Assembly: GCF_000143415.4 (NCBI RefSeq)
Contig: NW_003314309.1
Span: 260,300-324,299 of the forward strand
Source: Selaginella moellendorffii
Lineage: Eukaryota > Plantae > Lycopodiophyta
DNA: 64,000 nucleotides
Direction: 5' to 3'
In this document: positions 1 through 39,222 of the stretch, one piece after another
Position numbering within the stretch: the first letter of the stretch is position 1
How the letters are laid out: each line of letters begins with the position of its first letter
Notes under the pieces: model-generated
Told to the model about the DNA's origin: nothing
The model's database searches: none
The model's input: only the letters and a program-made list of their open reading frames with translations
Translations under genes and position numbers: made by a program

Positions 1-340
1 CCAGAGTTAGTGAAGTTGGTCTCTTGTGATCCCGCATCTGATTGTGATGTCCCTTTGCAGTGTCGATGGAAAAGTCAATGCACACCAAACTGTAGAATCT
101 TGGAGCAAAATAACGGTCGGATCTATGGCAAATGCCACTGAAACATTGTAAGGCTCGTGTGGTCTCATGTGGTGTCCGATCGAGATGCTTCTTTGCAGGG
201 TCATCAAGAAGAACATTGTATACCATTCTTTATTTAGCTGAACATCTGGCATTTTTGGAAATACAAGATGCTTTGGAATATCCAATCATGCATGGTATAA
301 ATATAGCGAGGGTATTAAATGATATCCCAATCATGATCTT

Positions 341-690
341 TCTTTTGGATTTCGCGTGCATGCAGTCCGAGGAATGATGACGTTGCGGATTTCTTTTGGA
401 TTTCACGTGCATGCATGCGCGCGGCGATCCAGAAATTAATGGTGGCGCCCAAGTCCGAGGAATGATGACGTGGCGGGATTACCAACCGTCGTGACATTTC
501 GCGCGTGTGAGGTTAGGTTTTGCATTGTACTCGCGCTCGCACACTCGCGCTCGCATCTCGCTCCCACTCGCGATCACGCTCACATTCGTGCTCATCTACC
601 TTCTCTACAGGTTTCTCGTGTGCATCGGCGTCCACTCGCGCTTGCATCACACTCGCGCTCGCATCGCGCTCGTGTGCATCGGCGTCCACT
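341..690. promoter_or_regulatory. CpG-rich upstream region with direct repeats, RY/G-box-like motifs and an E2F-like site
   Basis: TCTTTTGGATTTCrCGTGCATGCA at 341 and ~392; AGTCCGAGGAATGATGACGT at 364 and 452; CACGTG 404-409 next to CATGCATG; TTTCGCGC 497-504; CACTCGCGCTCGCA repeats across 528-670. Confidence 0.45.
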
Positions 691-898
691 TCAAGACACA
701 CCCAGTTTGTAACTTCGCCGCCAACTCCGCCGCCCACTCCACCACCCACACGCAGCCCACTTGGCGTCCCGGGAGATTTCAGCACCACTCTCCAACTGTA
801 AGTGGCAGAGTAGCCTTACTGCTACGATCCGCTGCACACACAGTGCACATTCGCCAGCGAGTCCGGCCTCGATTGTCACCGCCTCCATTCGGCTTCAA

Positions 899-3800
899 AT
901 GGTAAGTCTTTTAGACGAAGTAGAAAATGGCATGAGGCCACATGCCATTCAGTAGCAACATTGGCATGCACCGATTGGGCTCTCGAGTGCAGTCCGGTTA
1001 CAGATGGCGTGTAGCCTCATGCCATCTTAGGATGCAGCCTCAAGACATCTGATGCAGTGGTGAATGGCGTGTGGCCTCACGTTATTTCCAGCTGCTAGCT
1101 TTTCATCTGTCAGCTCTAATTGTTGTGCATTTTTGAACAGGCGAGGAATTGCGTTCTTCTTCCAGCCACTGTCAATGTGGATGCAGAGAAGGGGGAGGAG
1201 CTCACCAGTTGGACTTTCGGGATGGAAGGCGAGGATCTGATGCTGTACAACACAGATGGTGGGAGAAAAGAATGCATGGGGATCCTCATCCAAGTGACAG
1301 ACACTCCATGCAGTTCCATGCAAGAATATGGACTGGCACTTGTGGTAGAGACAGCGTCCGCCTTCAAGATCCACCTTGCACATCCTAGCGGCTTCCCGGA
1401 GGGGGGCAGCGGCTATGAGGAATTCCTAGAGGGAGCTAGGGAGAGGTTGTCCAGGAGGCCCACAATTTCAAAGACGCTGCGGGTCTATGAAGATCACATG
1501 GAATCCACGGACCTCACCTACGGCGATGTTCAAAAACTATATTCCAACATTGAGCCGTTGAGAGTGCCTCCAGTTTGCGAAGCGAAGGGGAAGGGGGTCG
1601 ATCTGGAAACTACCCCGAAGCAGAAAAGGGTGGTCAAGCTTAAGCCGACGTCCGACTCTGCTGCTCCAAAAAAGAAGCTACTCGGTGATGCCATTGCCTC
1701 GGGTTCGAACACTACACCCACCAAAAAGAAGAGCCGCAAAGAGCAGAAAGAGCAAGAAGAGGCAGCAAAAATCGTCGCAGATAATAGTACTTGTTACTAT
1801 TCCAACAAAGTATATACAATCGACGTGAGCCGTTTCGAGATCCAAAGCAAATACAACCACAGGCTAGTATCTGATGAGTGGGTGGAGAAACTGAAGCAGA
1901 AGATGCTGGCAAGTCCAGTAACACCCGACATCGCAGACGTGATCCCCTACTACCGAACAATGAAGGGCGAGACGAGGTTTCCAGACTTGATCAATAGGAA
2001 GGTGTTGGACGATCAGAACATCCGGTTCTATGCCGTCTCCGGGCAGCATTCTAGCTTGGCGATGCAACAGATAGTTGTGGATATTATGGTGGGCGAGGAG
2101 GTGAAGAAAGTCTTCAAGACAAGAGTTGTCCGCCTGATAAAAGGCAACTCGCCCCTCCGATCTATCATATACATCTCCCACGCGCAGAATGTCAAGCAAG
2201 AAACGTGCTACAAATCGGGTCTGCACGAGACATTGGCACGAACACGGAAGCTCTGGGTTCAACTGAAGAAGCCACAAAAACCAGGACAAGGACGTGCACT
2301 AGCAACTAGCGCCTGGCAGGTAAGCCTCGTTGCATGTGGCATAGCATGTGGCCTCACGCCATTTCCATTGCAGGAATTCTCGAGTCTTCTCTCGAAAACA
2401 CTGGGGGTCAATGACACACTCAGCATCCATAACATTCTACTCGCGACAAAAGTTGTTTTTGACAAATGGGTAGATGTGCTAAGGAGGTACCATGACGGGG
2501 AGTTGCTAAACTCAATGGGTGTGGAGGACGGCCGGAAGCCCAATGATTTGAAGCTCAACGCCTTGCGTTTCTCGCGGTCTCTAGACGACGACGACCTTTT
2601 GACAGTGGCTAATGCTCTTCTACGTGGTGAGGTAGTCTTCAACAAGACCAAAATGACTCCCGGCCATATTGTGACATACGAGGACTTGTGCACGACTCTG
2701 AGAGCTCGTGCGCTATTGAAGGATTGGATCTTCGAGCAAGTGGCCGTGGCGAGGGTGAGCATCGACACCACGCAAGAGATGATGGAAGAGCTGGACTTGT
2801 CAAATGAAGACATCGACGAGTACGTGAAGGGGGCCCCCAAGTTCATCGATCTGCTGCGGGATGCCACGAAAAGTAAAGCTGAGAAGTTGGATCAGTATCC
2901 AAATTTCATTAAGAGGGATGTCGACCGCCGGCTTCAGAAACAGCTCGACCCCGCAGCAGAGGCCTATCGAGAACCTTACCGGGTATACGTGAATTCGGAT
3001 GAGGATCAAAGGTGGAGGAGCATCATTTCCCGCGGAGATGAGCAGGTCAAGAACATCTTTTGTGTGATGGACTTCACAAACGAGGAGATCACTCATGCAG
3101 ACGAAGTCAGCTCCATCATTGACTTAATGGTGGGACTTGCGGAGGTGGAATCTTCAGTCCACTATATGATCTACGACTCCGAATCCTATCACAAGTTCTG
3201 GAAGGCCTTGAACGAGGTGAAGGCTCGGTTGAAAGGCAAGGAGATGCGGGAGATCCATGGGATAATGGCTAAGAAGAAGATACCGACAAATGTCCGCATC
3301 TTCACAGTCGCCCTTGTTATTGGTCCTGCAGCAGAGTGGGACTGGAGTGACTTCCCAGCTTCGTTCAACAAAGCCGATCGAATTGATCTGAGGGAGGTCA
3401 ATTTACCCGTGCCTGAGGAACTGAAGACGGCTATGGAGCTTTCGAATCCAAAGAAAGCTCCAGGTGCAGCATGGGAAATGCTCAGCTGGGTCTTCAACGC
3501 AATAGCGGGTGACTCCAAGGGCAAATGCGTTGTCGAGTACAACTGCGGTGGACTATTCTTTCGAGCCGCACTACTCAAGGGTGTCCCGTGTGTTGCGGTG
3601 ACAAACTCCATTGAAGAGGTGACTTCAATGGAGCATATAATTACAGTTGCCAAAGAAAAACAGTATCTTCTCTACGAACCTGGTGAGTACGCACTTTAAG
3701 TTTAAATGTTATCTCACAAGCTCTGTATGCAGGAGCGTGGCCACCCCCAGATGCTGAAACGGCGTTAACAGCTACTGATGTTAGGCCGAGGTCACAACCT

Positions 3801-6489
3801 GCACAAGGTAAGGTCACGTGAGGCCTCACGCCATTTTGATTATAGATCGTTGTGAATATTCAGACACGAGGATTGAAAAGCGCACTGGTGGCGCGTCGAA
3901 GAAGGACAAACAGACAAGCAATAGGAAAAAAGGAGGTACAAATTATATTTGCAATGGCGTGTGGTCTCATGCCATTCCTTGCAGGAGACACTTCTTCAAA
4001 GGCAAAACAGGCAAGCACCAGCCAAGCTCAAACTGACAGTGGTCATAAAAAGCGAAAGCACGTTGGACAGTCGTCGGGATCAGAGGCGTTTGATTCGAAA
4101 AGGAAGAAGGGCAACGAAAAGATGATAGGTAATGCCTCGCGGTTATGGCGTGTGTGCTCATGCCATTCATTGCAGATCAAGGGCTGAGTGAAAGGAGCCA
4201 GTCACCACCTTCTGACTCAGATTCCTATGGCGGACTCCCCTTCCCCAATCTCAATGGAGAGGTACAATGGATGAGGGATGCTTTTCAAGTCAGGGCCACG
4301 TTTTTCTCATCTCGTCGTCTTCGAAGGGTGCAAGAACGTGCAGAAACCATGTTAAGACAGTCGGGTGAGGATACGGTCCTAGGTCACGCACTAAAACAGG
4401 CTATGGATGTCTTGTATTTTGAGATGGAGACTCGGCCAGATGATTTTTCCAAGATGGTCCTGGAAAAACAAGCAATCCAGCCTGAGCAGCCTATGGAAGA
4501 AATGCAAGAGGGGGATGAGGAGCCAGAGAAAGATAATGAGCAGGAAGAGCAGAAGGACGAAGAGGAGGACGAAGAAGAGGAGGACGAAGAAGAGGAGGAC
4601 GAAGAGGACTTGGATGGTCCTCACAATGGTGACGATCACAATAACGACGATGACGATGATGACGATGATGGCCAGCCTGAGGTGGCCAAAGAGCAGCGGA
4701 GGAAGGTCATACAAGACAAACCATCAGGTAAATAATAGTACATCCATTCCTAACCTTTTACCATTTCTAACATTGTCCATGTAGGTCGCAGAAGAAATGG
4801 TAAGTAGAGATTATTCAGTTGAATTAAGATACAAACTCTAGCCTTTAGTGTCGAGGAAGGATAGTGCCAAGCAAGGGTCGAAACGTATGTCCAATCCTTC
4901 AGAATCAGCAGTGCGCCCAAGTGATATCGGTCCTAGTTCCTCAATAGCAGTTGATGGTAAATACAGTATAGTCGATTCAATGTGCTAATGAGTTTGTTTT
5001 TAGTAGCACGGGAGGATACCATCTCAATCGAAGGGAGATATTTGGACATGCATATGGATCCGCCAGTGGACTCTACTTGCCTGCAAGAGTCATCAGAGCT
5101 GGTGGAGGCTACTATCCATATCAACGCCAAGCAAGCTGACCACGCTCCACTTGATGCTGCCCATACCACTGAGTCAATCTTGTCCACGTATCCAACTGAC
5201 GGTGACCAGGCGCCATTGGACCCGCATGAGGCCGCCCCAGCCGCCGAGCCGGTCGTATCCTCATTTCCAACGTGTGCCCAATCGTCTGACTACGCGCCGT
5301 TGGAACCTCCCTACACCGCCCCTGCTGCCTGTTCGGTCATGTCCACTTTGCCAACGGAGGCACCAGCTGAAATGGCGTGTGATCACACGCCATCGGAACC
5401 ACCCCATGCCACTGTTGAGCCAGTTGTACCAGAGTCTACAGCTGAAATGGCATGTGCCCACACGCCATCGGATGCGATTGACCCCACATTGCAGAGGAGA
5501 GTATTTCCGCCCTTCACGTTTCCTCGACCAAAACCCTCTGAACGACCATCGGGAGCACCATTCGCTAATATTGTAGATGGTAAAATTGACTTGTACCATT
5601 TTTTATGCTAACGCATTTCATTTCAGAGTCACGGCGAAAGTACTGTATCGTTTTTGATCTGAACGGTGTCCTTTTCTCCCATGAGCGTGGCTCGTCCTCG
5701 AATGTCACTGCACCCTCCAAAGCCTGCGGTCGCAAGTTGGTCAAAAGAGACAGATTCACATTAATCACACGGGAGAAACTGCGGGATCTAATAATGACCA
5801 TGCGACACTTAAAACAGAGGGCCGGGTTCAATTTGCAATTGGGAGTTTGGACATCCATGATGCGCCACAATGCATTAACGTTGCTACAGATGATGCACGA
5901 TCAGACGCGAGTAATATTACCATTTGACTTTCTCCTAACGCAGGAGGATTGCTTGACTATGGTCCATGTGAGGGGTAGCAAGCCCATCTTCGTCAAGGCA
6001 GAGGCTGTAGTGATGAACCGGACTGCTAGGTCAAGTGAAATCCTCATCATCGATGACTCGCCGATTAAAACTGCAGCGAACACGCACACATATGCAGTGC
6101 ACCCCATCTCTTGCAGTATGGAAACTAGGGAGAAGAAACCGTATGTTCTGGGGGACCTTGCAAAACGGCTTGAAGCGATGGTGATAGAGAACCGGCCAGT
6201 CCAGGAGGTGGCTGCAGAAATCAACCAAATGGCAGATGGAACGGTATATCAGAAGCCATTTGATCGGACAGACACCAGTCATCATTTATGGCATGTATAT
6301 TGTCTAGCCAAGCACTATCCGCATCTCCATAATCTGCTCAACCGGATGGGTTCTTCAACCACTGAACATGAGCGTGGACGTATTAGAGAAGAGATGGCAT
6401 TACTATTGGGTTTAAATCCTGATAGTGTGGAGAGTGATGAAATTCCAAGATTATTGTATAGGCGTTGGAGGCAAAAAATAACAGTCTGA
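899..6489 (+). CDS. Multi-exon gene: ParB/Srx-like domain + degenerate N6/N4-MTase-like fold + acidic/Pro-rich linker + FCP1/SCP-like HAD phosphatase (~1637 aa)
   Basis: Manual GT-AG model: exons 899-901, 1141-2319, 2374-3682, 3733-3807, 3846-3935, 3985-4128, 4176-4727, 4785-4799, 4849-4956, 5004-5579, 5627-6489, giving 4914 nt with no internal stop. It links ORFs 1120..3699, 4145..4735, 4982..5611 and 5605..6489. Motifs: NHRLVSDEWVEKLKQKM...FYAVSGQHS (ParB-like); CVVEYNCGGLFFRAALLKGVPCVAV (MTase motif-I-like); IVFDLNGVL, GVWTS, LTQEDC, ILIIDDSPIK (FCP1/NIF HAD). Confidence 0.7.
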
Positions 6490-6838
6490 GATGGCATGTA
6501 TTTATTTAAAAATGTAACTTATTATGGCATGGGGTTCCATGCCATTGTATTAATATTAAAAGACAATTCTTTGAGAGGATTTGCATTATACTAGAAGTGT
6601 TACAGCATGTTATTGGAAGTCTACGAAGTTGTTTTATTAATAAGGGGAAAGTAAAGATTGAATGGGGACTTGGGCTCCACCTAGACTCGGAGCAACTGAG
6701 CCAATATTAAAAGGATGGAAAGAAATTGGACGACAATGACAAGGAGAAGAGAGAGGTGAAGCAGTGGCAGGGGGAGGAGAAGTGATTGAGTAGACATTTC
6801 CTTGTTTAAAATAAAATGGCATGTGCCTCAATGCAATT
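926..6838. repeat. Dispersed ~24-bp palindrome ATGGCRTG-N6-CAYGCCAT (about 12 copies)
   Basis: Copies at 926-949, 1003-1026, 1063-1086, 2341-2363, 3813-3835, 3953-3976, 4145-4167, 5371-5394, 5446-5469, 6524-6546, with degenerate copies at 6815-6838 and ~153-172. The spacer is constant at 6 bp and is usually TGGCCT-like. Confidence 0.9.
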
Positions 6839-9800
6839 GAATTTTGTTATATTTATATACTATATAAAGGTTTGGAAACCTTATTTTACAAGTGGGATAA
6901 TGACAATTCCCACTTTAACGAAATAGAGCTTTTGTGCTTTGGAACTTTTAATTCTGACTTTCTTGAAGTCAATTTCCTAGGTGTCTCCGACACCTTGCAT
7001 TGCACATATTGTGCAAATCTACTTCCTCATCCTAGGAAGTTCTCCATTTGAGGGCACCATCATCCTCCGTTCGATTTCATGCCACCTTTGGGCACTGAGT
7101 TCCAGTTATCATATTTTGTGCTAGGGCTGTCCACGGCCCTATCATTTGGCTACTTTGCCGCTCCCTCACTTGGAGCTTTTACTTCGCTAAATTGGAGCAC
7201 TTAGGAATCCATCCTGGGAAGTCCACTTCCTTTCCCACAAGCCGTTAGCATCAAACACATTAGTGTTCCTTGGCTAACTTTGCCATTTGGATCCCTTCCA
7301 TTAAATTCCATGGCCCAAACTTGGCCACTAGTCCTTTGCTCCTATCCTTGATTGTTGCACCCAGCAACATAGGATTGCTACCTCCATTTTTGAGGTATCC
7401 TTTCGGTTCCATAGCAAAGACTCTTCTTTGCTAAGTCCAAAAGATGTTCACCCTTAGTATGTCTCTTTAGCATCTTCTGCTATGGGCTCTATCCACGGCC
7501 CAACTTCGTGACCCTCCCATGGGTCTCTTATAGAAACTACCTTCCTCGGACTCACTATGCCATCGCACGGACACAGTTTATTTCCCTTAGGTGCTCTTCC
7601 CACTTGGTCATCATAACCAAGCCACACCACCTTAAACAGTTCAATTTCAACATTTTGAACCAGGAACTTCATTCCTTGGCCAACCAAGGACCTTGTCCTT
7701 ATTTGGCCATACGATCACCTAGTGATCTCACATTGGCATCTTAACAGAGTTGCCAAGATGTACTTGGTCTTCTAGACCTTCAAATTGTTGACTATAACCC
7801 CAGGGGCATCCCCCACACTTGGCGATGCACCCAAGCCAGCCCTTACGGCCAAGGGTTCATAGCAACTGAGATTAGGTGTCCCCATCTCACTCACCACGTC
7901 CTTGGTGCCCCTTGCACCAAAGCATTCAAGTTAGATATGCCAAGCTTTCACACTAAGCAATCTAACCGTGCATCACGACTCCGAGGCATCCCTCGCTTGG
8001 CAGTGTGCCCAAACCAGTCTCCACACTGAGAGTCCATGACCACCAAAATATGAGTGTCCTCATATTCCAAACCATCACCATGCCTTAGTGATTTGGGATT
8101 CGAACCCAAGCACTAGAGGGTTGGGACTCGAACCCAACCTCCGTATATGCATCTACGGACGGCATCACACCGGATGCCTGGCGTGACTCCCCACGCCGGT
8201 GCACCAACTTATATTTAAAGCGCACCACAGATCACAGCTTAGGAACCTAGTTCCTCCACACTGCCAAGTCCTCTCACTTGACATGTCTGTGATCATGCAT
8301 GGACTCCTCCATGCTTGGCCCCATGGGCCACCCTTTTTGAAGTTAGCACCTTCAACTAGGGTATTTGTTCCCTTCGACTTGCCAATCTCACTTAGCAAGT
8401 CATCCGGCCACCGTAACATGGTTCATGCATAAGCGTGAAAGTCCTTAACCATCGACTTTCGTTCAAAGCCCTCTCTTTGAACACTCGGGAACTACTTCCC
8501 CAACCTTGATAGCCTCACCTCATGGCAAGCTTCAAGACCACGCTTCTGCTGCACCACTCTGATTTCGTGCGTTCTATGAACCATTTACACTTGGCTTTCT
8601 AGGTATCCAATTACCTAGAATTGTCTTTGGGAACCTTTCGAAGGAACTCTGTCCCTTTAGCTTGCTAAAACCTCTCCTTTCGCAAGCTTTTCAATTGCCA
8701 TATAGTCTAACATGGACAATCCCATGTTTTAGACTCTCCATGGCATCCCAGTCGCTAGTAACAACATGCTTGAGCGCCCACTTGATTCTCCACTCCCTAC
8801 TTGCTTAACCACCCTTGGTCATGCCTGTCAATTCCTATGGTTTGGTTCTATCCCTTTATTACTTGCCTTTTGGCCTCATACATTTCCTTCGATCATTCTC
8901 CTCCAAACTAGGAAGATAGCTTTGCACTTTCTACCATGCTTTGGCAAGTATTCATAGGAATGAACCTACCCGACAGCCTAGGAGTGGTTCCTCAATCCGG
9001 GTTTGCTCACCTTGTAATCCCATACCCTAGGATTACCGTTGCTACTTGTGGGCCTTTATATGCCCATCCCTAACCTTGCCAAAATCCCCTTTGGCTTTGT
9101 CCAATTTGGGTAGACGAACTTCTCCTGTCTCCACAACCTTGGACATTTGGATAGCACCTTCTATCCTTCATTCGCTAGGGACTTTGTCCCTTGGGCATTA
9201 TCCATTGCCCTCATGACACCAAACACCACCTTCTGGTGTTCTAGAGTGCTGGGTGTCCTAATGATGGCATCTTTGGCAATGAGCATTCCCTTTACGACAT
9301 TGACTTACTATCTCGCAGCATAAGCAATTTATCCCTCATAAGGGTACATCTAACTTCTTTACCCCAATAAAAGGTCTTAGGTAGATACGTTCTACCAGTT
9401 TAACCAATTACTTTGCACTTTTTGCTTAGTTGCCTCATAGTTGTCAAGTCCTCCAACTCATTGCTGGTGCTTCCGCACCCCCATCATTATCTAGGTCACC
9501 ACACTCTAACCGCATGCCTTCTAGCTTAGGCTATACCATTCCCATTTCCATTGGGATTCCTTTGGACGGGGTTCTCATGAACCCGCCAACTTGACCTCAA
9601 GGTAGCATGCCTTGGCACCTTCGGTGTCTCCACACCATCGGCTCCACGAGCCTACCTTTATGACACTTCTTACTTGTGTCTAGGTCTTTTTGCCATGACC
9701 AGTATGGTTACCTCTTATGCCAATTATCCATTAGCATTGCACCATAGAGTTTATGCATAACTTTGTGTCAAAGTTGTTTTCCTCCGGGAAACTCTTTCCC

Positions 9801-10666
9801 ACAACTTTATCATGGCACCTTCTGCTATCAATGAGATACCTATTGTTCTCATACTTGGATCTTAAGCTCCTACCCATCCTTCATGGGGTACCACACACCT
9901 CAGTCCAAATGTTTCCATCAATCCCTTTGGATTATTCCTTGACTCTATTGGAGTCATTTAACTTTTTGGACTTTGCTAATCCGATGACCGATGAGGTCCT
10001 ACTTGTGAGGTGCTAGCTCATTGGAATACAACTCCTTGTATTCATGTCCTACTCACAAGGACCATCTTTGCAAGTGTTACTCCGACACTTGATTTGTTCT
10101 CTAGAGGCAACCTTTTACCCCTTAGGACCACCTGTCCATGTGATGAGAATACCAACTCATCCACTTAGTACACCCCCAACTCCTTGGGTTGTTCTAGCAT
10201 TTATTAGAGGTAGCCTCGGCTACCATTTCAAGGACTCGTGTCCTCATCCATGCTTGACCTCTCACGGTCACCCATTCCGGTCTCACCTTCATGAGCACCA
10301 GCCTCAACTATGTAAGGATAATCTTGTGACTCCTTTATTGTTTTTGGAGTCTCTATCTTCCCCGTGATCCCAACTATAGTTGTTTACCACAACTATATTA
10401 GCCAGTTTGCTGAGTCAAACGCTCATCTAGATCACCCCCTCAACTAAATGAGGAAAACCTTGCACTGTTCCCAAGATCCCAAAGTCATTCCATTATTGGC
10501 CCTTTTCTATCCACCACCTTGTCTACAAGTTCACACATGAACTATAATGGAGAACCATGTCTTCCCGACCTGCTACTCCTCAAGGATAGGCCCACTCCTC
10601 AGACCTTCCGTTGCCAACACCAGTGGTGATATGCTTGAGCACCAATAAAAGTTGGACTAAGGAACA

Positions 10667-10678
10667 GCTCTGATACCA
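10667..10678 (-). other. Primer binding site (tRNA-iMet)
   Basis: The minus strand reads ...CTTACA ATT TGGTATCAGAGC. Confidence 0.9.
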
Positions 10679-11689
10679 AATTGTAAGCGACTAATTTTTT
10701 TCATTTTACTTTAGTCACTTAACCACACCTCTGACCACTTGGAGGAGTCTCATTCACAACCTCCATAAGTCCCAGTTAGGACTTGGGGCATGCTAGCCCC
10801 GAGAATGGCATCCATGCCACTCAACCTTTGCACTTAGTCCAAGTGCTCCACGTGTCCAATCCCATGACCGACACCCCAAGGTACCCCCGACATATTGGCC
10901 CGTTACGCTAAGGCCATGCCTATTCACCTTGGTCACACCTTTGGTCTAACGCCACCGACATCATAGTCCCGTCTCTCAAAGACTGGGCCATCCGTCCGTG
11001 AGTGATCATCCCAGATCCACTCCTTAGCATCCCTGGGATGCCTGCAGATATGGGGAATAGCCTTCCCCGACATCTCTTTTTCAGTCCCCACCAAGTCCCT
11101 TCTCGTCCATGGCCGTGTTCGCCAACACTGCCACTGGATCAAGGCCCGCAGGCCCGACCACTAAGTCCCACTATCCTTTGGGACTTCCTCACCATATGAC
11201 CGTATCCTTGGTCACTGCATTAGAGGCCTACTCCTCTTCCCTTTCACCATTTGGGACTTTGGGACAACATTTCGGAACACCATGGCCCTACGCGGGCCTC
11301 ATGGGTACTCTCCCCGCCTTTCGCCTTTAGGTGCTCTAGCCATAGGCTTAGAGCGAGGTTCCGTTGAGCCACGACAGGTATCCAAGTAGGTAGTGCCACC
11401 CACACTTGGACTGGGAGCATCGGCCAGTCGATCTCCCGGGGGAACTAGAGCCGGCTCTTGAACACTTCACCAAGCTACCCCGCTTGTCAGTCCATGTTCA
11501 CTCTAGTCTTGGACTTCCCGGTGGGCAGCTCATCACCCAGCACTGGGTCCGGCCTTCCTGGGCCAAACTAGCCTTTCCTGGCCAAACTGGCTCCACTGCA
11601 ATCCTCCCCCTACTATACTTTTGGAGCTCACCAAACCCCCCAGGGTCTGGGAGACGAACGCTTTGGGCTTTCACCCTCTCAAACTTGAA

Positions 11690-12066
11690 CTCAGACTTGG
11701 ACTCAGACTCGGACTCGGACTCGGACTCGGACTTGGACTCGGACTCGGGCTCGGGCTTGGTCTCGGCCTCGGTCTCAGTCTTGGTCCCGATCTCGGTCTC
11801 GGTCTCGGTCTCGGTCCCGGTCTCGGTCTCGACTTCGGACTCCATCTCGGACTCCATCTCGGGTCCATCTCGGACTCCATCTCGGACTCCATCTCGGACT
11901 CCATCTCGGGTCCATCTCAGACTCCATCTCGGGTCCATCTCGGACTCCATCTCGGACTCCATCTCGAGTCCATCTCGGACTCCATCTCGGACTCCATCTT
12001 GGGTCCATCTTGGGTCCACTTCGGACTCCACTTCGGACTCCACTTCGGACTCCACCTTGGACTCTT
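11690..12066. repeat. Compound 6-/12-bp tandem repeat array inside the LTR
   Basis: (GGACTC)n grades into (GGTCTC)n, then (CTCCATCTCGGA)n, then (CTCCACTTCGGA)n. Confidence 0.95.
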
Positions 12067-12316
12067 CCACGTGTCATGTGTTAGTCCTTTTTGGGTCCCT
12101 TTTTGGAGCCTGGCTTATGGCTCGCTTCGTGCTCATTCCTCAAGGACTTTGTTAGGGGTTCCATTCCCACTCTCGACCTTTCGAGGCGGAGCTTTTAGTC
12201 CAAACGTGTTACGCTCGTTTGGCTTTCGCTTTGGCCACTACCACGTGGCGCCCCTCCGGCTCCACTTTGGGGCCTAGGGATTTTGTGTCTCACACATGGG
12301 AGGTCAAATACAAAAG

Positions 12317-13890
12317 AGGACACAAGTCCTTGAAATGGTAGCTGGGGCTACCTTTAGTAAATGCTGGAACAACCCAAGGAGTTGGGGGTGTATTTAGAGA
12401 TGAGTTGGTATTTTCATCACATGGACAAGTAGTCATAAGGGGCAAAGGTTAGCCCCTAGAGAACAAAATCAAGTATAAGAGTAACACTTGCAAAATAGTC
12501 CTGGTGAGTAGGACATGAATACAAGAAGTTGTATTCCAATGAGTTAGCACCTCAAAAGTAACACCTTATAGGTCAAGGGATTAGCAAAGTCCAAAATGCT
12601 GGATGACTCAAGTGGAGTCAGGGAATGGTCCTAAAAGATTGGTAGAAGCATTTGGACTGAGGTGTATGGTGCCCCATGAGGTATGGGGAGGATCATAAGA
12701 TCCAAGTATAAGAACAAGAGATATCTCATTGATGGCAGAATGTGCCATACTAAAGTTGTGGGAAAGATGTTCCTAGAAGAAAGCAACTTTGGCCTAAAGT
12801 TGGGGGCAAACACTATGGTGCGGTGCTAATGGATAGTTAGCATGAGGCCCAACTATATTGGTCTTGGCAAAGACCTAGACACTAATAAGTAGTGTCAAAA
12901 GGATAGGCTCGTGGGGCCAATAGTGTGGAGACACCAAATGTGCCAAGGTGTGATACATTGAGGTTATGTTGGGGGGTTCATAAGAACCCCTTGCCAAGAG
13001 AATCCCAACGAAAATGGAAATGGCATAGCCTAAGCTGGAAAGCATGTGGTAGAGTGTGGTGACCAAAACAATGATGGAGGTGTGGAAGCACCAACAATGA
13101 GTTGTAGGACTTGACAACTATAAAGCAACTAAGCAAAAGGTGCAAGATAATTGGTTAAACTGGTAGAAGGTAGCTACTCTAGACTTCTTAATGGCATAAG
13201 GAAGTTAGATATACCCTTACGAGGGATAAATTGTTTATGTTGCGATATAGTAAGTCAATGTTATAAAAGGGAATGTTCATTGTCGAACAGGCCATCATTT
13301 AGGACACCAAAACACTCTAGGACACCAGGAGGTGGTGTTTGATGTTGCGAGGGCAATAGATAAGGCCCAAAGGACTAGCTTCAAGACCATGCTTTTGCTG
13401 CGCCACTTTGGTTTCGCGCGTTCCATGAACCATTTACACTTGGCCTTTCTAGGTACTAAACTACCTAGAATCGTCTTTGGGAACCTTGAAGGAACTTTGT
13501 CCCTTAGCTTGCTAAGGCCTCCTTTTTCGCAAGCTTTCTAGTTGCCATATAGTCTAGTATGGACAATTCCATATTTTAGACTCTCCATGGCATCACGGTT
13601 GCTAGTAACAACACCCTCGAGCCCCCACTTGATTCTCCACTCCCAACTAGCATAACCACCCTTGGTTATGCCTTTCGATTTCTATAGTTTGGTTCTATCC
13701 CTTTACTACTTGCTTTTGGCTTCACACCTTTCCTTCGGTCATTCTCCTCCAGATTAGGAGGATAGCTTAATGGCATAAGGAAGTTAGATATACCCTTACG
13801 AAGGATAAATTGCTTATGTTGTGATATAGTAAGTCAATGTCATAAAAGGGAATGCTCATTGTCGAACAGGCCATCATTTGGGACACCAAA
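12317..13890. mobile_element. Rearranged fragments of the same retroelement internal region
   Basis: 12317-13375 is an inverted, diverged copy of ~9186-10245. 13378-13768 is a direct copy of ~8529-8922. 13767-13890 nearly duplicates ~13188-13312. Confidence 0.85.
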
Positions 13891-14899
13891 AAGTCTAAAA
13901 TGTGTGTGTGTATTTGTGTGTGTGTGTAGTGGCTTCCAAGTGTATTGCATATATGGCTACAATATCATATACTAATATTAGCATAATGGTATAAGGTAAA
14001 TTTTCTAAGCTAATTAATATGCATATTTTTATATTTCACCGTTGATGGTTGTTATACTTAATATTCAATGTCCATAAAGTGTGGAGTAAGACTTACCTTT
14101 TTTTTATGAAGTTCTTTTGATGAAGTAGAGATGGTGTGCTATTAGCCACCAGATGACCTTATGACAATGCAAAGAGAGGTTGAAGAATTAATAAGATCTT
14201 TATTAACTCTTTCATTGAAAGATTTACTCTTGATCATGTTGCCACTCCGCAAAATCCCTTCAAAAAAGCATGTGGCAAGGATTTTCATGGGTGGACAATA
14301 CCTAATGATTATGTGGAAAGCATTAATGGATGTTAGAGAGCATCTAACAAGGTATGAGGCATGGATCATAGAGGAGATTATTTGGAGTCTTGCCATAGAG
14401 AAATGAAGTCTAGAGTTTTATTTCCTCCTTTGCTAACACTATATTTTCACAAGTGCTTATCATCCATAAACAAATGGCTTGGTAGAATGGCTTATTTGGA
14501 TCTTCAAAAAGATGATTATGAAGTATGTAAATTTTTATCATTCAGATTGGGATGGTTATTTGCCATTTCTTTAGTATACATATGTCACTAATGTATGGTT
14601 TACCTTCATAATTGCCACAAATTGCCGATGTTAAGTTTTAATATTAATATTTAACAACAATTCTTTCACTTATTTAAGCAAAGTCTACTAAACACTTGGG
14701 CCACATATAAGTGGGATAACAATGGTATTACAACTGCCATTATTATTCACCTAGGGAGTACATGGTGGATTTCTTGGTGTTAATCCATTTTCCCAATCTT
14801 ATAGTTTGTTTAAAAGGTGTTTTGTTCAAGAGAAGGGTGTAGCACATATAATTATAGTATGAGATTTGGATATACTATCATCGTAGATCCTTAGAACTT

Positions 14900-15550
14900 T
14901 AGAGGATAAATAGGGATAAAATAGCCACTCATCAAGCAATTCCCTTTTTTTAGTTAGTTTAAGGGGAGAGACATAAAGTGCACTACATGTAGTATCGAAG
15001 CAAATGGCACAGGTTCAATTTTTATTGATTAATAGCTACTTAAAAATATAATATATCTTTGAATAAGGTATATTTCTACCCCTAAATTTGAAATCATACG
15101 TATTAGGCATCCATACATACTTTCTTCCTTTTGGTGGAGCATCCATGGACGATAGGATTGCAGTATGGGTGGATGATTAGTTGCTTTACATGGAATATTT
15201 AATTTACACAATAGAAGGATTGATAGATTCAATGTGGAAATGGAAGTGTTAATTCCCCTTGGCTCAATAGGGGTTGTTAGTCAATAGTCAATAAGAACAT
15301 TAACATCTCTAAAGGAGGGGTGAGTGTAACGCATGTGATCATACCTTAAGGGATAAATAAGGATAAAATAGTTGTTAAGGGTTTTTTTTATCAAGCAATT
15401 ACCCCTTTTTTAGTTGATTTAAGGGGAGAGAGTGTAACACATATGATTATACCTTGAGGGATAAATGGGGATAAAATAGCCACTAAAAGTTCTCTCATCA
15501 AACAATTGCCCTTTTTTTAGTTGATTTAAAGAGAAAGAGATAAAATGCAT
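14900..15550. repeat. Three copies of a ~75-108-bp AT-rich unit
   Basis: GGATAAATrrGGATAAAATAG...ATCAArCAATT.CCCTTTTTT.AGTT..TTTAA at ~14904, ~15350 and ~15458. Confidence 0.8.
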
Positions 15551-17803
15551 TATAAAGGGATGTTATAACATAATGGACCACAAGTCTATTAAGTTTAGCA
15601 TGATGTTTAATAGGCAAATCCCCCAAAAATTATGCATATGCAACAACTAAAATGGTTCTTACAAAGGGATCAGAAACAATTGACACCACTTCACTATTTA
15701 AGAAGAGATCAAATAATTTATTAGAGCTATAAATAAAGTATTATATTAGGTTTTTCCAACATTTATATAACTTTTGCAAAGTTATAAGAATTGATTAGAG
15801 CTAAAGAAAAAGATGTAAGAAAACCATTAATGTCAAAGTGTTTAAACTATTAGGAGCTTGTCATCAAGTCAAGGGAAGATGACAAAATTATTAATAAAAT
15901 ATTAAAACAATAAAGAAGAAAAGATGGATTTATGTTGAACAGTTTAAATACAAAATCCTCAAAAATTTACTTTTAGAAATTAATTTGGTTTAACACAACT
16001 ATATTGGAACTTCAAAATGCTTCAATTGAAATAGAAAAGTTTTACATGTACTTTTAGAGCCATGAAGGTTTTTATCAAATAGCCTAAGCTTAGCTCTCCA
16101 AACCTTAAAAACTCTAAATAACATGAGTGAAGAAGGAAAGGACCAAGTTTGTGAATTTAAGATCCTTGGAAAAAGTCCCAGCTTTGAGGAAAAATCATGA
16201 ATGCAAAAACCCCAAACTTGATCCATGTCCTAAACTTTGAACTCCTAGATTTCACTCTTGAGCTATTGGATTTGCATAAGGTGTGTTTTCTTTGGGTGTC
16301 TCTAACTTCTCAATGTTGCAACTTGTCGGGAATAAGGGGGAGGATCACGGAATTAGAGTCCCATGTCTAACAAAAAGTTTAAGCATTCATTAATTTACAA
16401 CTTTCAACAATAGTTTACAAATATGGCCAACCAACCAAGACCTAAGGAGAATATTCACCAACAAATTAATGAAGTCTTCATGAAATGTATATGCCAATAA
16501 TTTTCTAATTAGAGAGGCTTAGGAAAATGCTTGTCAAGGTTTAAATGTGGGTACACTCTAAGAATGGTTATGAGAGAGGACCACACCGTGACAGCTGTAG
16601 AGGTAAAATTCTATTACGTGGGCATGCCAGGAGATTTTGAAAACTCATTGCACATACAAGCTGTGAGTGAAAGCTAAATCACACACATAGTTTGATCCTC
16701 AAGTCATATCTGGTAAAATTAAAAGTAGAAGACTAAGCCATCTCAGCAAAAAAAGTGACGTCATTCAATGTATAGTGGACCTAAACATTCTTCTGTGCAA
16801 TTTCCACTGTTGTGTTACACTAGATAGCCAATCCCTGCCAAAAGATCTTTCTCTGTGATGCTTGGTTTCAACACCCAATCTGCTTTAGCATTGAGATCAG
16901 GTGCCATGAAACAGTAGCTACAATGTGACAAAAACTTCCATTAGTTTTTGCTGGAGCAAAGTACTTGCTCCCTCTATATTCTAACAGCAGCAATGAAAAT
17001 GGTGTGAGCTCTTGCCGTTGGCTTGCACTTGCAAGGCCTATTAGAGAAGAGTGAGAGAGGAGGAAAATATATTACATGTGTTCATGGATGTGTCAAGTGC
17101 ACATACACACGGATCACACACACAAGCATTCACTGTAAGTTTCACGAATTTGAGGCAAACTTTGAGATGTTTGGGACAGAATCTGCTCAAGAACTTAGCA
17201 GCAGCAACGTTTATGAGCGGGTAGTCGTGGGTGAGTTTGAGAGGGAGCTTCTTGAGCTTCTCAGGATGAACGTAGAAAAGAGAAAAGAGGGAGAGTGAGA
17301 GAAAACAGTCAGGAGAGAGAGAAGAAAAAAAGCAACTACACATAATAAGGGCTCAATGACAAAGTCGTGGGCATTTGGATTTCAAGTGAAGTTAATTGTG
17401 TGGCAAGACGCAAGCATCTTGGAAATCACGTTGAAAAGAAGTTCCAACTTGCCTCAGTGCTGCCCTGGATTCCAAGGTAAGGAGGTGCACTCTTTTATTG
17501 ATTTTAGATTTAAGGTTGCTCCTAAAAGAATCTAAAGACATTGCTAAAGTTTTTCTTCATTATTTAAAAATGTGTGCGCATTGCCCATTAGCTAGGCAGA
17601 TTACTAATCCCACATATATAACAATATATATTAAGACATGCTAGGCCAATCACCTACAACATTATCATATGTATATATATGAAACGCATTATGTTGATTT
17701 GTTAAGTGTACAATAAATTCCTTTGCAAGAAGAAATTTTTTGAATGGAATTACCACCTGGGAAGCAAATTAGATTGGCTAGTCCGTGAGCCTATAGCAAT
17801 ACC

Positions 17804-36811: not shown

Positions 36812-39222
36812 CTAGTGCCTTCTCATTCCCCTATCCAAGGACGATAGCAAAAGTGTGGGGAACTCTGGTGGTACCTCTTTTCGACTAGTAACCCAGTTCC
36901 CATTATCCTCCAACCTGTGAATGGTCCAAGCTTGCATGTCCGGTAGATAATTCACGTACCAACAACTGATGCCGGCAAAGCCACTCTGAACCTTCACAAT
37001 CTCCGTTCCATCCTCCTGTACCTCCGTGAGCAGCGTCAGCTCTTTTATCACGGTTTTCGCACCCGTCGGATCACCTTCACCGACCCAGAAAAACAAGTAG
37101 CTCATTTCACAACGGTGAAGCCGCCCGTAATAGGCACACCGCTTCAAGTGGTCCTGCACAGCCTCCCTTGTCTCGCTGGAACTGGCCCCAACCTGGACTT
37201 CCATTCCCTGCTTGGGAGCATCCGAGCTCTCCATGAAGCCGTCCATCCTCTTCATCCTCCTTCCATTCTCGTCGCTCTCCTTGACCTCTACAAACACATG
37301 GTACTTGTGAGGAGTGTACAAGCTCTGCTCCATTATAAACATCAATCCCCGGAAGAACTGCGACTGCATGATGTACTCGGACGGCTGGCCAGACGCATTC
37401 AACACCTTGGGCCGCATGAACACCTTCGGATTCATGAAGGCTATCGCAGTCTCATAAACCTCCACAAGAGACTCTGTCGGGGCAGGCAAGGCTTGCAACG
37501 GTGCGAACTTGCAGCTTTCTAGTAGCGTGGACAAGAGCAACGGCGAGCTCAACTGAACCTTCCGAGTACCAGCCACCTCCAACACACCGTCGTCAATGGC
37601 TTCCAGAACCGTGTCCAAGTGATCGACGCCCGCAGATCCGTCAACGCTGTCGATGCACTGGAGTATCACGTCTTTGACGCGGTCAGGATAAGCAGCTACC
37701 ACTCGAACCATTTTCCCAAACACGGTATCGTTGAACGCATGGGATCTCACACGTCCCTGTTCAACCAGCTGACGCCAATGCTCAAAAGAACGCACAGCCG
37801 GACCCTGCTCACGACCAGTCCCTTGCAGAAGGTCGCAGCACCAACCAACAAGGCCAGCGTGCCCGGACGTGATGTCCATTATGCTTTTCGAAATTCCTGA
37901 GATTGCTTGGCGATGGTGTTCTTCATCTTCATCACCATCGAATGTTGTCTTGCAAAACAAGAAACGGTCCCGGAAGTAATCATCTAGCATCTTTGCAACC
38001 TGCTGCTGGCCCAGCCTCCATCTTTGCCTGTCAAGTTGCTTGGAGAGAGGGGATGACCAGCCGGAAAGATACGGGCGAAGTGGATCGTGGCAATGCCGAG
38101 GACTCGATGGCACGTAAGATTCTCGACGGCTCCTGGCGTCCCCGATGAGGTAGGCAAGTCTTGGCAGGCCGCACAGACAGAAGCTGTGAAGCCGGTACTT
38201 TCCAAGTTTGTTCCTCGTCACAGATTCTCGTTTTGCGATCCTTAAACTTGAGAGAAGGTTGCGAACCGCATAGCCAGTCTGGTGATGCATTTGATTGAGT
38301 AGCTGCGCTTCGTCCAGTAACCAGATGACAGGCTTGACATCCTTGCGAGCTGTAAACACGTCAATTACTTCGCTAGACTTTTCCGGTGGCTCGAGCTCGC
38401 TCTGGTCGCACACCTTTTCAATCAAACGCTTGTAAAAGTCCTCAGCAGCCTCCCACTCTTGCTTAGTCTTGTCGTTAGCCAGAGCGACCATCTTATCGTC
38501 CATGGTGGTGAGCTCCACCAAGTAGCCTTTGGCCCGGAGCTCCAACCCGAGCGCCGTCAGCAGCGTCGACTTGCCCGATTGCCATGGCGCCGTGAGCAGC
38601 AGCCAATTTCCGCTCTCCATCTCAGCCACAATCGAGTCCCGGTCCGGCCAAGGACAGTAGTAGAAACTGTCCAGGTCCACGATTGCGTCGCCAGAAAAAA
38701 AGCTGCGCGGAAGCAGACGCTTGCGGGGGCGCAGATGCCTGTCAAGGTCGACATGGATTCCCTCCCGCTTCTTGTTCAAAGCCTGACGCAGCGTCGTGAT
38801 ACCACTAGTGCTTGCACCAGCGGTAGCAGTGCCAGTGATGATGATGGGAGCCTGCTCCGAGAGCCCATCCCCAAGGCCAGCAGAAGCAGAGACTTGCCTG
38901 ATTTGGTTCATGTCCATGGCTGAACAAAACAAAGTTAAAAAGAACATCAAGGGTCTATAGCATAAAGCTTACCATTGAAGGATTTCAATAGGAGAAGCTT
39001 CTCCTCGCGCAGCTGCCTCTTCTCCTCGCGCAGCTCCCACTTCTCCTCGCGCAGCTGCCTCTTCTCCTCGCGCAGCTGCCTCTTCTCCTCGGGATCATTT
39101 GTTTGCTGGAGTTGCCCGTCCACAGCACTAATTTGGCCCTCAAGCACAGCAATCTGCTGCTCAACTTCCCGGATTTGCCCGGACAAGCCAGAAGCCGGAT
39201 CACCTTCCGCCTCCACGTCCAT
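36812..39222 (-). CDS. Crinkler/RHS-like protein: coiled-coil header + P-loop NTPase + PD-(D/E)XK-like nuclease (~785 aa)
   Basis: Exons 39222-38973 and 38919-36812 (53-nt GT-AG intron, frame preserved). Header with (LREEKRQ)n; Walker A LLTAPWQSGKSTLL; Walker B IWLLDEAQ; DITSGHAG; C-terminal PSEYIMQSQF...VEVK...RMDGF...GMEVQ. Confidence 0.72.
38996..39090. repeat. 21-bp coding tandem repeat (~4.5 copies)
   Basis: AGCTGCCTCTTCTCCTCGCGC units, encoding EEKRQLR on the minus strand. Confidence 0.95.

Follow-up and report, generated by a model that had tools for sequence, protein, structure and literature searches.

Self-recognition of a transposon by a ParB-type helper protein has so far been proposed for algae only. 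In Ectocarpus, the element Sola1-1_Ec32 encodes an accessory protein with ParB-like and N4C/N6A methyltransferase domains that, as has been proposed, binds and modifies the transposon encoding it (PMC12477816, accessible part), and PAG3 of Bostrychia Plavaka elements has a ParB-like N-terminal domain, with adjacent inverted repeats proposed as its sites (10.1101/2025.02.11.637652, accessible part). In land plants, VANC of the Arabidopsis VANDAL elements binds element-specific noncoding motifs, and anti-silencing was shown for it (PMC10398659, accessible part). In fungi, DUF3723 (PF12520) is a conserved cargo gene of Starships (PMC9156397, accessible part).

In the window, the 64-kb stretch of Selaginella moellendorffii DNA analysed here, we observe a spliced ParB-methyltransferase-NIF gene with palindromes in its introns and 3' flank. 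We lean slightly towards the reading that it serves a DNA transposon as an accessory gene and that its product binds these 22-bp palindromes. That it is an accessory (non-transposase) gene of a transposon seems quite probable; granted this, binding of the palindromes by its product is fairly likely, and granted both, anti-silencing as the purpose is an even call.

Gene structure and the ParB-like region

As the first-pass annotation had stated, a stop-free frame can be spliced through GT-AG introns on the plus strand, from ATG 899 to TGA 6489. With donors chosen by eye, 800 GT-AG combinations contain no stop, those listed yielding 1614-1659 aa, including the previously suggested length of 1637 aa; hence the junctions are not fixed by the frame alone. 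The best model has 11 exons, 10 introns and 1631 aa. Thus, the frame of the earlier model stands, while intron 2320-2373 was probably overlooked in it.

899-901, 1141-2319, 2374-3682, 3733-3807, 3864-3935, 3985-4128 (+): exons 1-6 of the spliced gene, predicted junctions
4176-4727, 4785-4799, 4849-4956, 5004-5579, 5627-6489 (+): exons 7-11, predicted junctions
902-1140, 2320-2373, 3683-3732, 3808-3863 (alternative end 3845), 3936-3984 (+): introns 1-5, best model
4129-4175, 4728-4784, 4800-4848, 4957-5003, 5580-5626 (+): introns 6-10, best model

Nine of the ten introns are 47-57 nt long. Eight of the ten have the motif CT[A/C]A[C/T] at a distance of 14-23 nt between the branch A and the AG, compared to 1 of 107 exonic YAG controls, the acceptors having been chosen by eye and the distance window set after the first look at the data; at the junction 5579/5627, CTAAC is situated 16 nt upstream of the acceptor. 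The in-frame intron 2320-2373 (54 nt) is supported by homologs, as 4 of 12 in the homolog alignment end at W-K-V there, and the Selaginella RefSeq model P0019, like the spliced window, has WQEF at this place. In three raw RNA runs (approximately 12% of each), where the locus is nearly readless, we saw no splice joint at any junction.

All motifs quoted in the first-pass annotation were found in the model (SGQHS at aa 301, MDFTN at 626, VEYNCGG at 781, DLNGV at 1355). The three domain calls made there are supported, and a conserved domain at the N-terminus, alignable in homologs and having an invariant Trp, had been missed; it has no Pfam match, and its Atlas scores are all below 0.9.

1141..1600 (+): N-terminal domain, no known family
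1792..2205 (+): ParB/Srx-fold N-terminal domain, by predicted structure; family motif F-x-A-[IV]-S-G-Q-H-S
2206..2700 (+): helical region where ParB has its DNA-binding domain, split by intron 2320-2373

The predicted model of the second domain (local pLDDT mostly 75-94) has the ParB/Srx N-terminal fold, in agreement with the earlier call. In VIA comparisons it matches Caulobacter ParB 7bm8 (Z 10.8, rmsd 2.3, 98 aligned residues), PadC (6ryk, Z 9.6) and KorB (Z 9.0); the top Foldseek rows are Noc and ParB, and a phage ParB is matched with E 2.8e-4. The proposed ParB motif was also retained: GQH is invariant in all 13 rows, the next residue being S in 12 and T in one, and never Arg. The arginine patch GERRxRA, by which ParB CTPase clamps are defined (PMC7333895, accessible part), is absent from the window protein and from all 13 aligned rows, and hence CTP clamping is doubtful. 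The ParB part probably extends further than had been recognized, through a helical region of putative DNA-binding type: the two-domain model aligns with ParB-parS 6t1f_B over 181 of 190 residues (Z 8.9, rmsd 5.3, 14% identity) and with Noc 7nfu_B over 178 of 213. The helical region folded alone from 2374 yields no HTH structure match (best Z 5.2).

In Atlas, the ParB domain falls into eukaryotic clusters, with DUF3723 at 0.95 (184 shared features) and ParB_N at 0.92. The DUF3723 link is a lead from Atlas features, without an alignment; Pfam DUF3723 (PF12520) matches 0 of 21 homologs at E up to 1.

Palindromes, copies and flanks

The first reading of the gene had not noticed an array of palindromes in the gene and its 3' flank.

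927..1085 (unstranded): three palindromes in intron 1 (927, 1004, 1064)
2341..2362 (unstranded): palindrome in intron 2, the right half being a branch-site-like CTCAC
3813..3834 (unstranded): palindrome in intron 4, 3 mismatches
3954..3975 (unstranded): palindrome in intron 5, its right half placed as a branch site would be
4145..4166 (unstranded): palindrome in intron 6, its right half likewise placed as a branch site would be
5372..5468 (unstranded): two palindromes in exon 10 (5372, perfect, and 5447)
6524..6837 (unstranded): two palindromes 3' of the stop codon (6524, 6816)
3733..5579 (+): acidic and Pro/Ser-rich low-complexity linker spanning seven short exons; its 75-bp-period repeat holds two palindromes

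The 22-bp palindrome ATGGCRTG-N6-CAYGCCAT occurs in 10 copies at no more than 2 mismatches and nowhere else in the 64 kb, and none of 100 shuffles reached 10. At up to 3 mismatches, the stretch 927-6837 holds 11 copies, and a further site with 3 mismatches is situated at 8178. Seven of the nine in-gene sites are intronic, introns making up 12.4% of the span (P 1.3e-5, the sites not being independent). The half-sites vary independently (3 G.T and 2 A.C among 10 sites), and thus recognition as double-stranded DNA fits better than an RNA hairpin.

Given the ParB-like domains and the 11 palindromes, mostly intronic, the gene is likely the element's helper for recognition of its own DNA. Its product would bind as a dimer to the palindromes in the introns and the 3' flank and, when bound, would mark the DNA of the element, probably countering host silencing.

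If the gene is transposon cargo, the palindromes could still be either sites of an unseen transposase or copies of a spreading small intron unit that supplies branch sites. The right half-site of introns 2, 5 and 6 is 16-18 nt away from the acceptor, a position taken by CTAAC or CTAAT in other introns; hence the palindrome supplies a branch-site-like motif in three introns, and an explanation by splicing is possible. Over the palindrome and acceptor, introns 5 and 6 agree to 90%, consistent with a spreading unit, while binding of element motifs by Spm TnpA and the AtMu1 transposase, described in the accessible parts of the sources, is consistent with transposase sites. However, six of the 11 positions do not fit a branch site (two far upstream in intron 1, two exonic, two past the stop), conservation extends to the left half-site, which a branch site does not require, and the modelled protein has a fold of the parS-binding type. 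We consider this alternative rather unlikely, and retain binding of the palindromes by the gene's own product as the preferred reading.

61..229 (+): last part of a spliced frame from further upstream, with exons 61-147 and 199-229 around intron 148-198; putative gene
795..834 (+): 40-nt stretch also present in a highly abundant RNA, 65 nt before the ATG
6932..14600 (unstranded): decayed LTR-retrotransposon-like DNA, adjoining the element and separate from the gene finding

The upstream frame, with a partial palindrome in its intron 148-198 and no Pfam match on 28 aa, is possibly another gene of the element. It is interrupted by a junction near 226-229. Contigs belonging to other copies depart from the window there (226/229) on both sides, and this junction differs between copies. 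At the other end, such contigs cease to match at 6931. In the adjoining decayed DNA, we take 10667-10678 to be a primer-binding-site-like word and the sequence near 14400 an integrase-like remnant.

The locus looks multicopy, although two haplotypes could account for a part of the variation. In the run X4 (2.84 Mb of contigs), all 30 bins are covered at depth 47-218, contig depth not being equivalent to copy number, and 89 contigs have 90-100% identity to the locus. Among the 34 in-gene differences listed, 9 are synonymous, 20 non-synonymous and none is a stop, which fits neutrality (P 0.37); the exonic indels listed for X4, three in number, all keep the frame (15, 12 and 9 nt). The locus is almost silent in the three RNA runs: nearly all reads (190, 118, 252) match only 795..834 and continue into other sequence. 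This stretch has no Rfam match, and the abundant RNA is presumably the 3' part of the large-subunit rRNA. No transposase, terminal repeat or target-site duplication was found within the 64-kb window, beyond which the left end of the element would lie. The copy-like contigs, the 226/229 junction, the neutral differences, the near-silence and the spread of seven Riccia proteins over at least five scaffolds make a mobile element, already guessed in the first-pass annotation, the best reading.

A domesticated low-copy host gene, that is, a chromatin factor kept for the benefit of the plant, would account for the intact frame with ten ordinary introns, for the in-frame X4 exonic indels and for a shorter relative being annotated as the Selaginella gene LOC9650508. 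It is nevertheless improbable, as the differences between copies look neutral, almost no reads come from the three RNA runs, the depth in the 2.84-Mb contig set is high, and many truncated paralogs are present in Riccia.

Methyltransferase and NIF domains and their homologs

2968..3675 (+): fold of the beta-class N6A/N4C methyltransferases, by predicted structure; motifs IV (MDFTN) and I (VEYNCGG) altered
5641..6087 (+): HAD domain, NIF/FCP1-like; DLNGV as motif I, with Asn for the second Asp; WTS, K and IDDSP kept

The predicted structure supports the methyltransferase fold suggested earlier: for residues 417-652, the top VIA rows are beta-class enzymes (Z 8.4-10.6), the best being M1.HpyAVI (10.6), CcrM (10.4) and MboIIa (10.2), and motif IV precedes motif I, as in the beta-permuted order. 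The Pfam search of this part of the window gave no match; the Riccia homolog P0034 reaches PF01555 with E 5.8e-4, below the cut-off. The degeneracy of the motifs, also suggested earlier, is borne out. Catalytic [DNS]PP[YF] is replaced by MDFTN in the window, and PP is absent from all eight homolog rows with letters there, the homolog variants being DFTN, DLTHP, DAAHG, DLRRC, DSANG and DATTD, all without PPY. In place of the SAM-binding motif I DPFxGxG the window has VEYNCGG, Riccia LDFFSGG being nearer, and the Adiantum proteins do not have the motif I half. Judging from these motifs, the domain is likely catalytically dead and may serve in DNA or SAM binding. Could it still be active through a non-canonical motif, writing 4mC or 6mA on the DNA of the element, in the way proposed for the algal proteins? 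The fold is complete, the motif IV Asp is invariant in the homolog alignment, Riccia versions retain LDFFSGG and an HP..KR motif, and Marchantia possesses beta-class 4mC enzymes that are active and carry TSPPY. Yet with PPY missing from all aligned homologs, VEYNCGG as the window motif I and no motif I half in the Adiantum proteins, activity seems very unlikely.

The last exon matches Pfam PF03031 (NIF) with E 4.4e-6 (26.9 bits against the cut-off of 21.8), as had been called. The FCP1/SCP catalytic motif is DxDx(T/V), and the window NIF has DLNGV instead. Thus, of the FCP1-phosphatase assignment the family stands, while the second catalytic aspartate is missing. The domain may be a weak or pseudo-phosphatase acting on chromatin or on an RNA polymerase II substrate. 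The scaffold function put forward in the first-pass annotation, by which a phosphatase-like module would be carried to chromatin, is a conjecture.

If the NIF exon were a separate small gene starting from an ATG near 5608 and merely adjoining the ParB gene, this would agree with the in-frame ATG just upstream of the acceptor in the last ORF, with the lack of RNA joints, with the weak similarity of the window NIF to homolog NIFs (E 0.0094 vs 500 shuffles), and with the fact that the homolog fusions are gene predictions. On the contrary, the donor GTAAAA, the CTAAC branch site and TTTCAG at the acceptor define an intron of 47 nt that resembles the others, and the same ParB-to-NIF layout is found in annotated Riccia (liverwort) and Adiantum (fern) proteins. 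Four predicted Riccia proteins and one predicted Adiantum protein combine the ParB motif with NIF in a single chain, and Adiantum P0018 passes from its helical and methyltransferase parts directly into NIF. We regard a separate gene as highly improbable.

The Riccia homologs comprise seven proteins on at least five scaffolds, besides the many truncated paralogs. The named homologs are all from land plants, the top Atlas clusters are eukaryotic, and neither IMG/VR nor a tblastn search of phages yielded a confirmed relative. ParB and beta-methyltransferase folds being typical of phages and bacteria, the gene could be a recent transfer from a prokaryote or the remains of an endogenous giant DNA virus, but this has hardly any likelihood given this distribution, the ten spliceosomal introns and the lack of a recognizable viral gene among the nearby long ORFs.

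Comparison with known systems

The domain content is like that of the Sola1-1_Ec32 protein, with ParB-like and prokaryote-type amino-methyltransferase parts in one eukaryotic gene. The Selaginella gene differs in its land-plant host, altered methyltransferase motifs, mapped palindromes and the lack of a transposase in the window, and its product is longer (1631 vs 1104 aa), with the N-terminal domain, acidic linker and NIF/FCP1 added. ParB-methyltransferase accessory genes are already published for algal transposons (PMC12477816; 10.1101/2025.02.11.637652; accessible parts). New relative to these are the land plant, the intact gene, the motif-dead methylase, the NIF fusion, which we did not find in the literature searched, and the intronic candidate sites.

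With an intact copy, near-identical relatives and 11 copies of a candidate site, the proposal is directly testable. If true, it would provide a second family-specific anti-silencing route in land plants, unrelated to VANC and TnpA, and a bacterial partition protein at work on plant chromatin, and would hint at the role of Starship DUF3723. A broader scheme is speculative, and on balance we doubt it: land-plant transposons would run ParB/parS-like self-recognition, a ParB dimer loading on intronic 22-bp sites that double as branch sites and delivering a dead methylase and an FCP1-like module, which rewire family-specific silencing or Pol II activity; the module, a distant relative of Starship DUF3723, would have persisted in liverworts, ferns and Selaginella.

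The best HHpred match of PAG3, 7BNR, is also among our top VIA rows. Unlike the Selaginella gene, PAG3 carries a 2OG-oxygenase, the methylase being in a separate gene, and the PAG2/PAG3 repeats form tandem arrays beside the gene, whereas our palindromes are dispersed and mostly intronic (PAG data from the accessible part of the report). The predicted N-terminal and helical layout and the palindromes in cis resemble bacterial ParB/Noc with parS/NBS (6t1f, 7nfu, 7bm8). Bacterial ParB/Noc sites are 16 bp long; the differences here are 22-bp sites, no GERRxRA, no ParA, extra domains and a spliced eukaryotic gene. Starship DUF3723 is the nearest named family by Atlas language-model features and is likewise cargo of mobile elements. 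As in FCP1/SCP (PF03031), the nucleophile Asp, Thr/Ser, Lys and DD motifs are kept, but motif I is DLNGV here, DLNGL in Adiantum and DVEGL in Riccia, and the domain is fused to a predicted DNA-binding protein. VANC, an accessory protein with noncoding element motifs, is the functional model, by analogy with which anti-silencing would be expected here; unlike the Selaginella gene, it targets tandem repeats, and no ParB fold is reported for it in the accessible part of that source.

Gene model and domain composition

The gene at 899..6489 (forward strand) is real and intact. As the first-pass annotation had it, the seemingly separate open reading frames can be joined into one stop-free frame from the ATG at 899 to the TGA at 6489; yet, with the donors fixed by eye, 800 stop-free joinings are possible, hence the open frame by itself is weak support. 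In the preferred model, 10 introns, of which nine measure 47–57 nt, are removed to yield a protein of 1631 aa. The motif CT[A/C]A[C/T], with the branch A 14–23 nt upstream of the acceptor, is found in 8 of the 10 introns versus 1 of 107 exonic YAG sites (P 3e-15, overstated, as the acceptors were set by eye and the distance window was fixed post hoc). The in-frame intron at 2320–2373 is backed by homologs: four unspliced homologous ORFs stop at W-K-V there, and a Selaginella RefSeq model reads WQEF through the junction.

The exonic indels listed for other copies of the locus in sequencing run X4 are 15, 12 and 9 nt long, the copies in runs X2 and X3 are 3 nt longer near 5006, and a single contig (depth 2.4) has one nucleotide inserted at 1667. 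The 29 coding differences listed, out of a larger number, are 9 synonymous and 20 non-synonymous, with no stops, versus 27% synonymous expected at random. The junctions, whose check by RNA was proposed in the first pass, are not confirmed by RNA: about 12% of each of three raw RNA runs from one study contained no splice joints. The reads matched to the window (190, 118 and 252 in the three runs) nearly all match partially, to 795–834. This stretch of 40 nt runs in the sense direction, begins to recur in the other-copy contigs as well, and ends 65 nt ahead of the ATG; its sequence is almost that of an RNA of very high abundance, which we take to be the 3' region of large-subunit rRNA.

The Pfam profile search retrieved NIF alone, on the last exon, where an FCP1-type C-terminal domain had been proposed. 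For the part encoded at 1720–3681, an AlphaFold2 model was built from 21 sequences (pLDDT 70.4, pTM 0.58). Its top Foldseek rows are Noc and ParB, none in PDB below E 0.001; a phage ParB in BFVD matches at E 2.8e-4. In structural alignments (VIA), residues 25–162 fall on the ParB N-terminal fold (Z 9.0–10.8), residues 31–327 align to 181 of the 190 residues of parS-bound Caulobacter ParB (Z 8.9, rmsd 5.3), and residues 417–652 match the beta-class amino-methyltransferases M1.HpyAVI (Z 10.6, rmsd 3.7, 161 aligned), CcrM (Z 10.4) and MboIIa (Z 10.2); the predicted structure supports both folds expected from sequence. The helical part, folded separately (pLDDT 83.6), has no structural match, which we do not take as evidence of a new fold; its assignment as an HTH domain is tentative. 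Among language-model feature clusters of protein families (Atlas), those nearest to the ParB region (1783–2319) are unnamed sponge and mollusc clusters (0.95–0.96), DUF3723 (0.95) and ParB_N (0.92); the sponge and mollusc clusters suggest a wide eukaryotic ParB-like family including DUF3723. Sequence searches of PDB returned nothing relevant, and no ParB or DGQHR family is among the NCBIfam and PHROGs matches listed.

The ParB arginine patch is GERRxRA (PMC7333895). The proposed ParB motif, SGQHS, does lie on the predicted ParB fold, but it stands where this patch is expected, replacing it. All 13 aligned rows share the G, Q and H, as well as an Asn further downstream and two Arg, which suggests that a nucleotide pocket is retained, probably of another kind. 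In the methyltransferase, motif IV keeps the Asp alone and motif I is VEYNCGG, in line with the degenerate fold called earlier; judging from these residues, the methylase is most likely inactive. In the loop just upstream of motif I, at 3510, the window lacks 15 nt present in other copies. Motif I of NIF is DLNGV. Given these altered motifs, all three domains are atypical.

Relatives of the protein

A phmmer search of 1.84 billion proteins gave 18 matches, of which 15 are true relatives (23–34% identity); P0002, P0005 and P0015 were dropped as repeat artefacts. The named homologs belong to Selaginella moellendorffii, Calypogeia fissa, Riccia sorocarpa (7 proteins) and Adiantum nelumboides (2). 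In five of these proteins (four from Riccia, one from Adiantum) a single annotated chain holds both the ParB motif and NIF; these are gene predictions rather than transcripts, but they make it unlikely that the fusion of the FCP1-type exon, claimed in the first pass, is a reading error. In the alignment of 21 homologs, NIF is matched in 5 of 21 members and N6_N4_Mtase, weakly, in 5 of 21.

Selaginella LOC9650508 and close entries comprise the helical and methyltransferase part only. This shorter annotated gene (P0001 and P0019–P0021; LOC9650508, LOC9646204), which lacks both NIF and the ParB N-terminal domain and whose methyltransferase part is presumably dead too, is possibly a domesticated or regulatory derivative.

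Word-index searches with 1783–3681 or the 21-member alignment gave no homologs, being insensitive, since phmmer found 18. No related locus was confirmed in viral contigs (0/11 pattern matches) or metagenome contigs (0/66 in each of two tries); tblastn gave no match in phages and three chance rows in plasmids (E 2–3).

Palindromic sites and the probably repeated locus

The palindrome ATGGCRTG-N6-CAYGCCAT has 10 sites with at most 2 mismatches, all in the gene and its 3' flank and none elsewhere in the 64 kb (0 of 100 shuffles came near). With looser settings the count within 927–6837 rises to 11: five introns hold seven of the sites, exon 10 another two, and the sequence after the stop the last two; a further, weak site lies at 8178. 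Changes at R are not coupled to those at Y, since G.T as well as A.C combinations occur, and hence the site fits one read as double-stranded DNA. An RNA-hairpin reading was set aside in view of the A.C mismatches and the intron folding z-scores (+0.45 to -2.53); an Rfam search of 1–16000 found nothing real.

The main alternative is that the palindromes are sites for the transposase or for splicing; their right half falls at the branch-site position in introns 2, 5 and 6. The simplest account is that of a transposon accessory protein, which would bind the palindromes of its own family via a putative ParB-type dimer and act locally on chromatin; by gaining such sites within introns, the element would leave the protein unharmed. 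Anti-silencing would be the purpose by analogy with VANC (PMC10398659) and TnpA (10.64898/2026.08.24.746577).

The locus is likely multicopy, judging from contig coverage: in run X4 (contigs totalling 2.84 Mb) 89 contigs fall on the region and together reach all 30 bins, at depth 47–218, and run X3 has 475 records on 1–8000, a range including retrotransposon DNA. At 226/229 the other-copy contigs part from the window sequence in both directions, pointing to an internal deletion in the window copy. At 61–229 there is the tail of a same-strand upstream spliced frame, whose intron carries a partial copy of the palindrome; the frame continues past 229 in other copies and could be a transposase or another accessory gene. 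The other-copy contigs cease matching at 6931; no continuation of the element was found past the retrotransposon debris, which includes:

6932–14600, nested decayed LTR-retrotransposon-like DNA
9186–10264 versus 12297–13375, inverted 1.08-kb duplication within it
near 11680–12060, tract of 12-bp-type repeats within it
near 14400, integrase-like remnant with stops

Two short hairpin-like inverted repeats at 6866–6916, just before the other copies diverge, may mark the element end; at this place one contig enters the window from another sequence that also bears a palindrome. Genes lie densely along the window, which is plant DNA, with PPR and heavy-metal ATPase genes (Pfam) and ORFs that by eye are presumably beta-tubulin, ABC transporter and GMP synthase. 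The shortness of the introns, together with the closest homolog that has a name, would fit a Selaginella-like genome. An uninterrupted 718-codon ORF at 36812–38968 (reverse strand), with a weak AAA_22 P-loop match (E 0.0026) and a C-terminal region nuclease-like by eye, is no obvious standard plant gene.

Comparison with known systems

Literature searches for ParB with a methyltransferase in Selaginella transposons, and for ParB in land plants or liverworts or with FCP1, returned nothing relevant, and none of the papers listed for bryophytes or ferns mentions ParB, a weak absence given that these searches missed both algal papers discussed below; those linking DUF3723 with ParB found none, and those on KDZ and Selaginella found Replitron papers only. 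For the green-algal cases, the source cited is Iyer et al. 2011. In chlorophytes and chytrids the fusion partner of ParB-HTH is another methylase, of the Dam type (PMC4738411). Marchantia DN4MT1, in the available text on which ParB is nowhere mentioned, has TSPPY. DUF3723 is conserved Starship cargo of unknown function (PMC9156397).

The closest parallels come from algal transposons. An Ectocarpus Sola element carries a 1104-aa ParB and N4C/N6A methyltransferase gene, and it was suggested that such accessory proteins may form a new class (PMC12477816); Bostrychia PAG3 is ParB-like, with inverted repeats adjacent (10.1101/2025.02.11.637652). These elements lend weight to the initial guess of mobile-element cargo, although no transposase is visible in the window. 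Land-plant versions and the NIF domain are not mentioned for the Ectocarpus or Bostrychia proteins in the passages of these two papers considered here; their supplements may list land-plant homologs. The window gene is intact, a probable variant of this recently proposed accessory-protein class, and a good test case.
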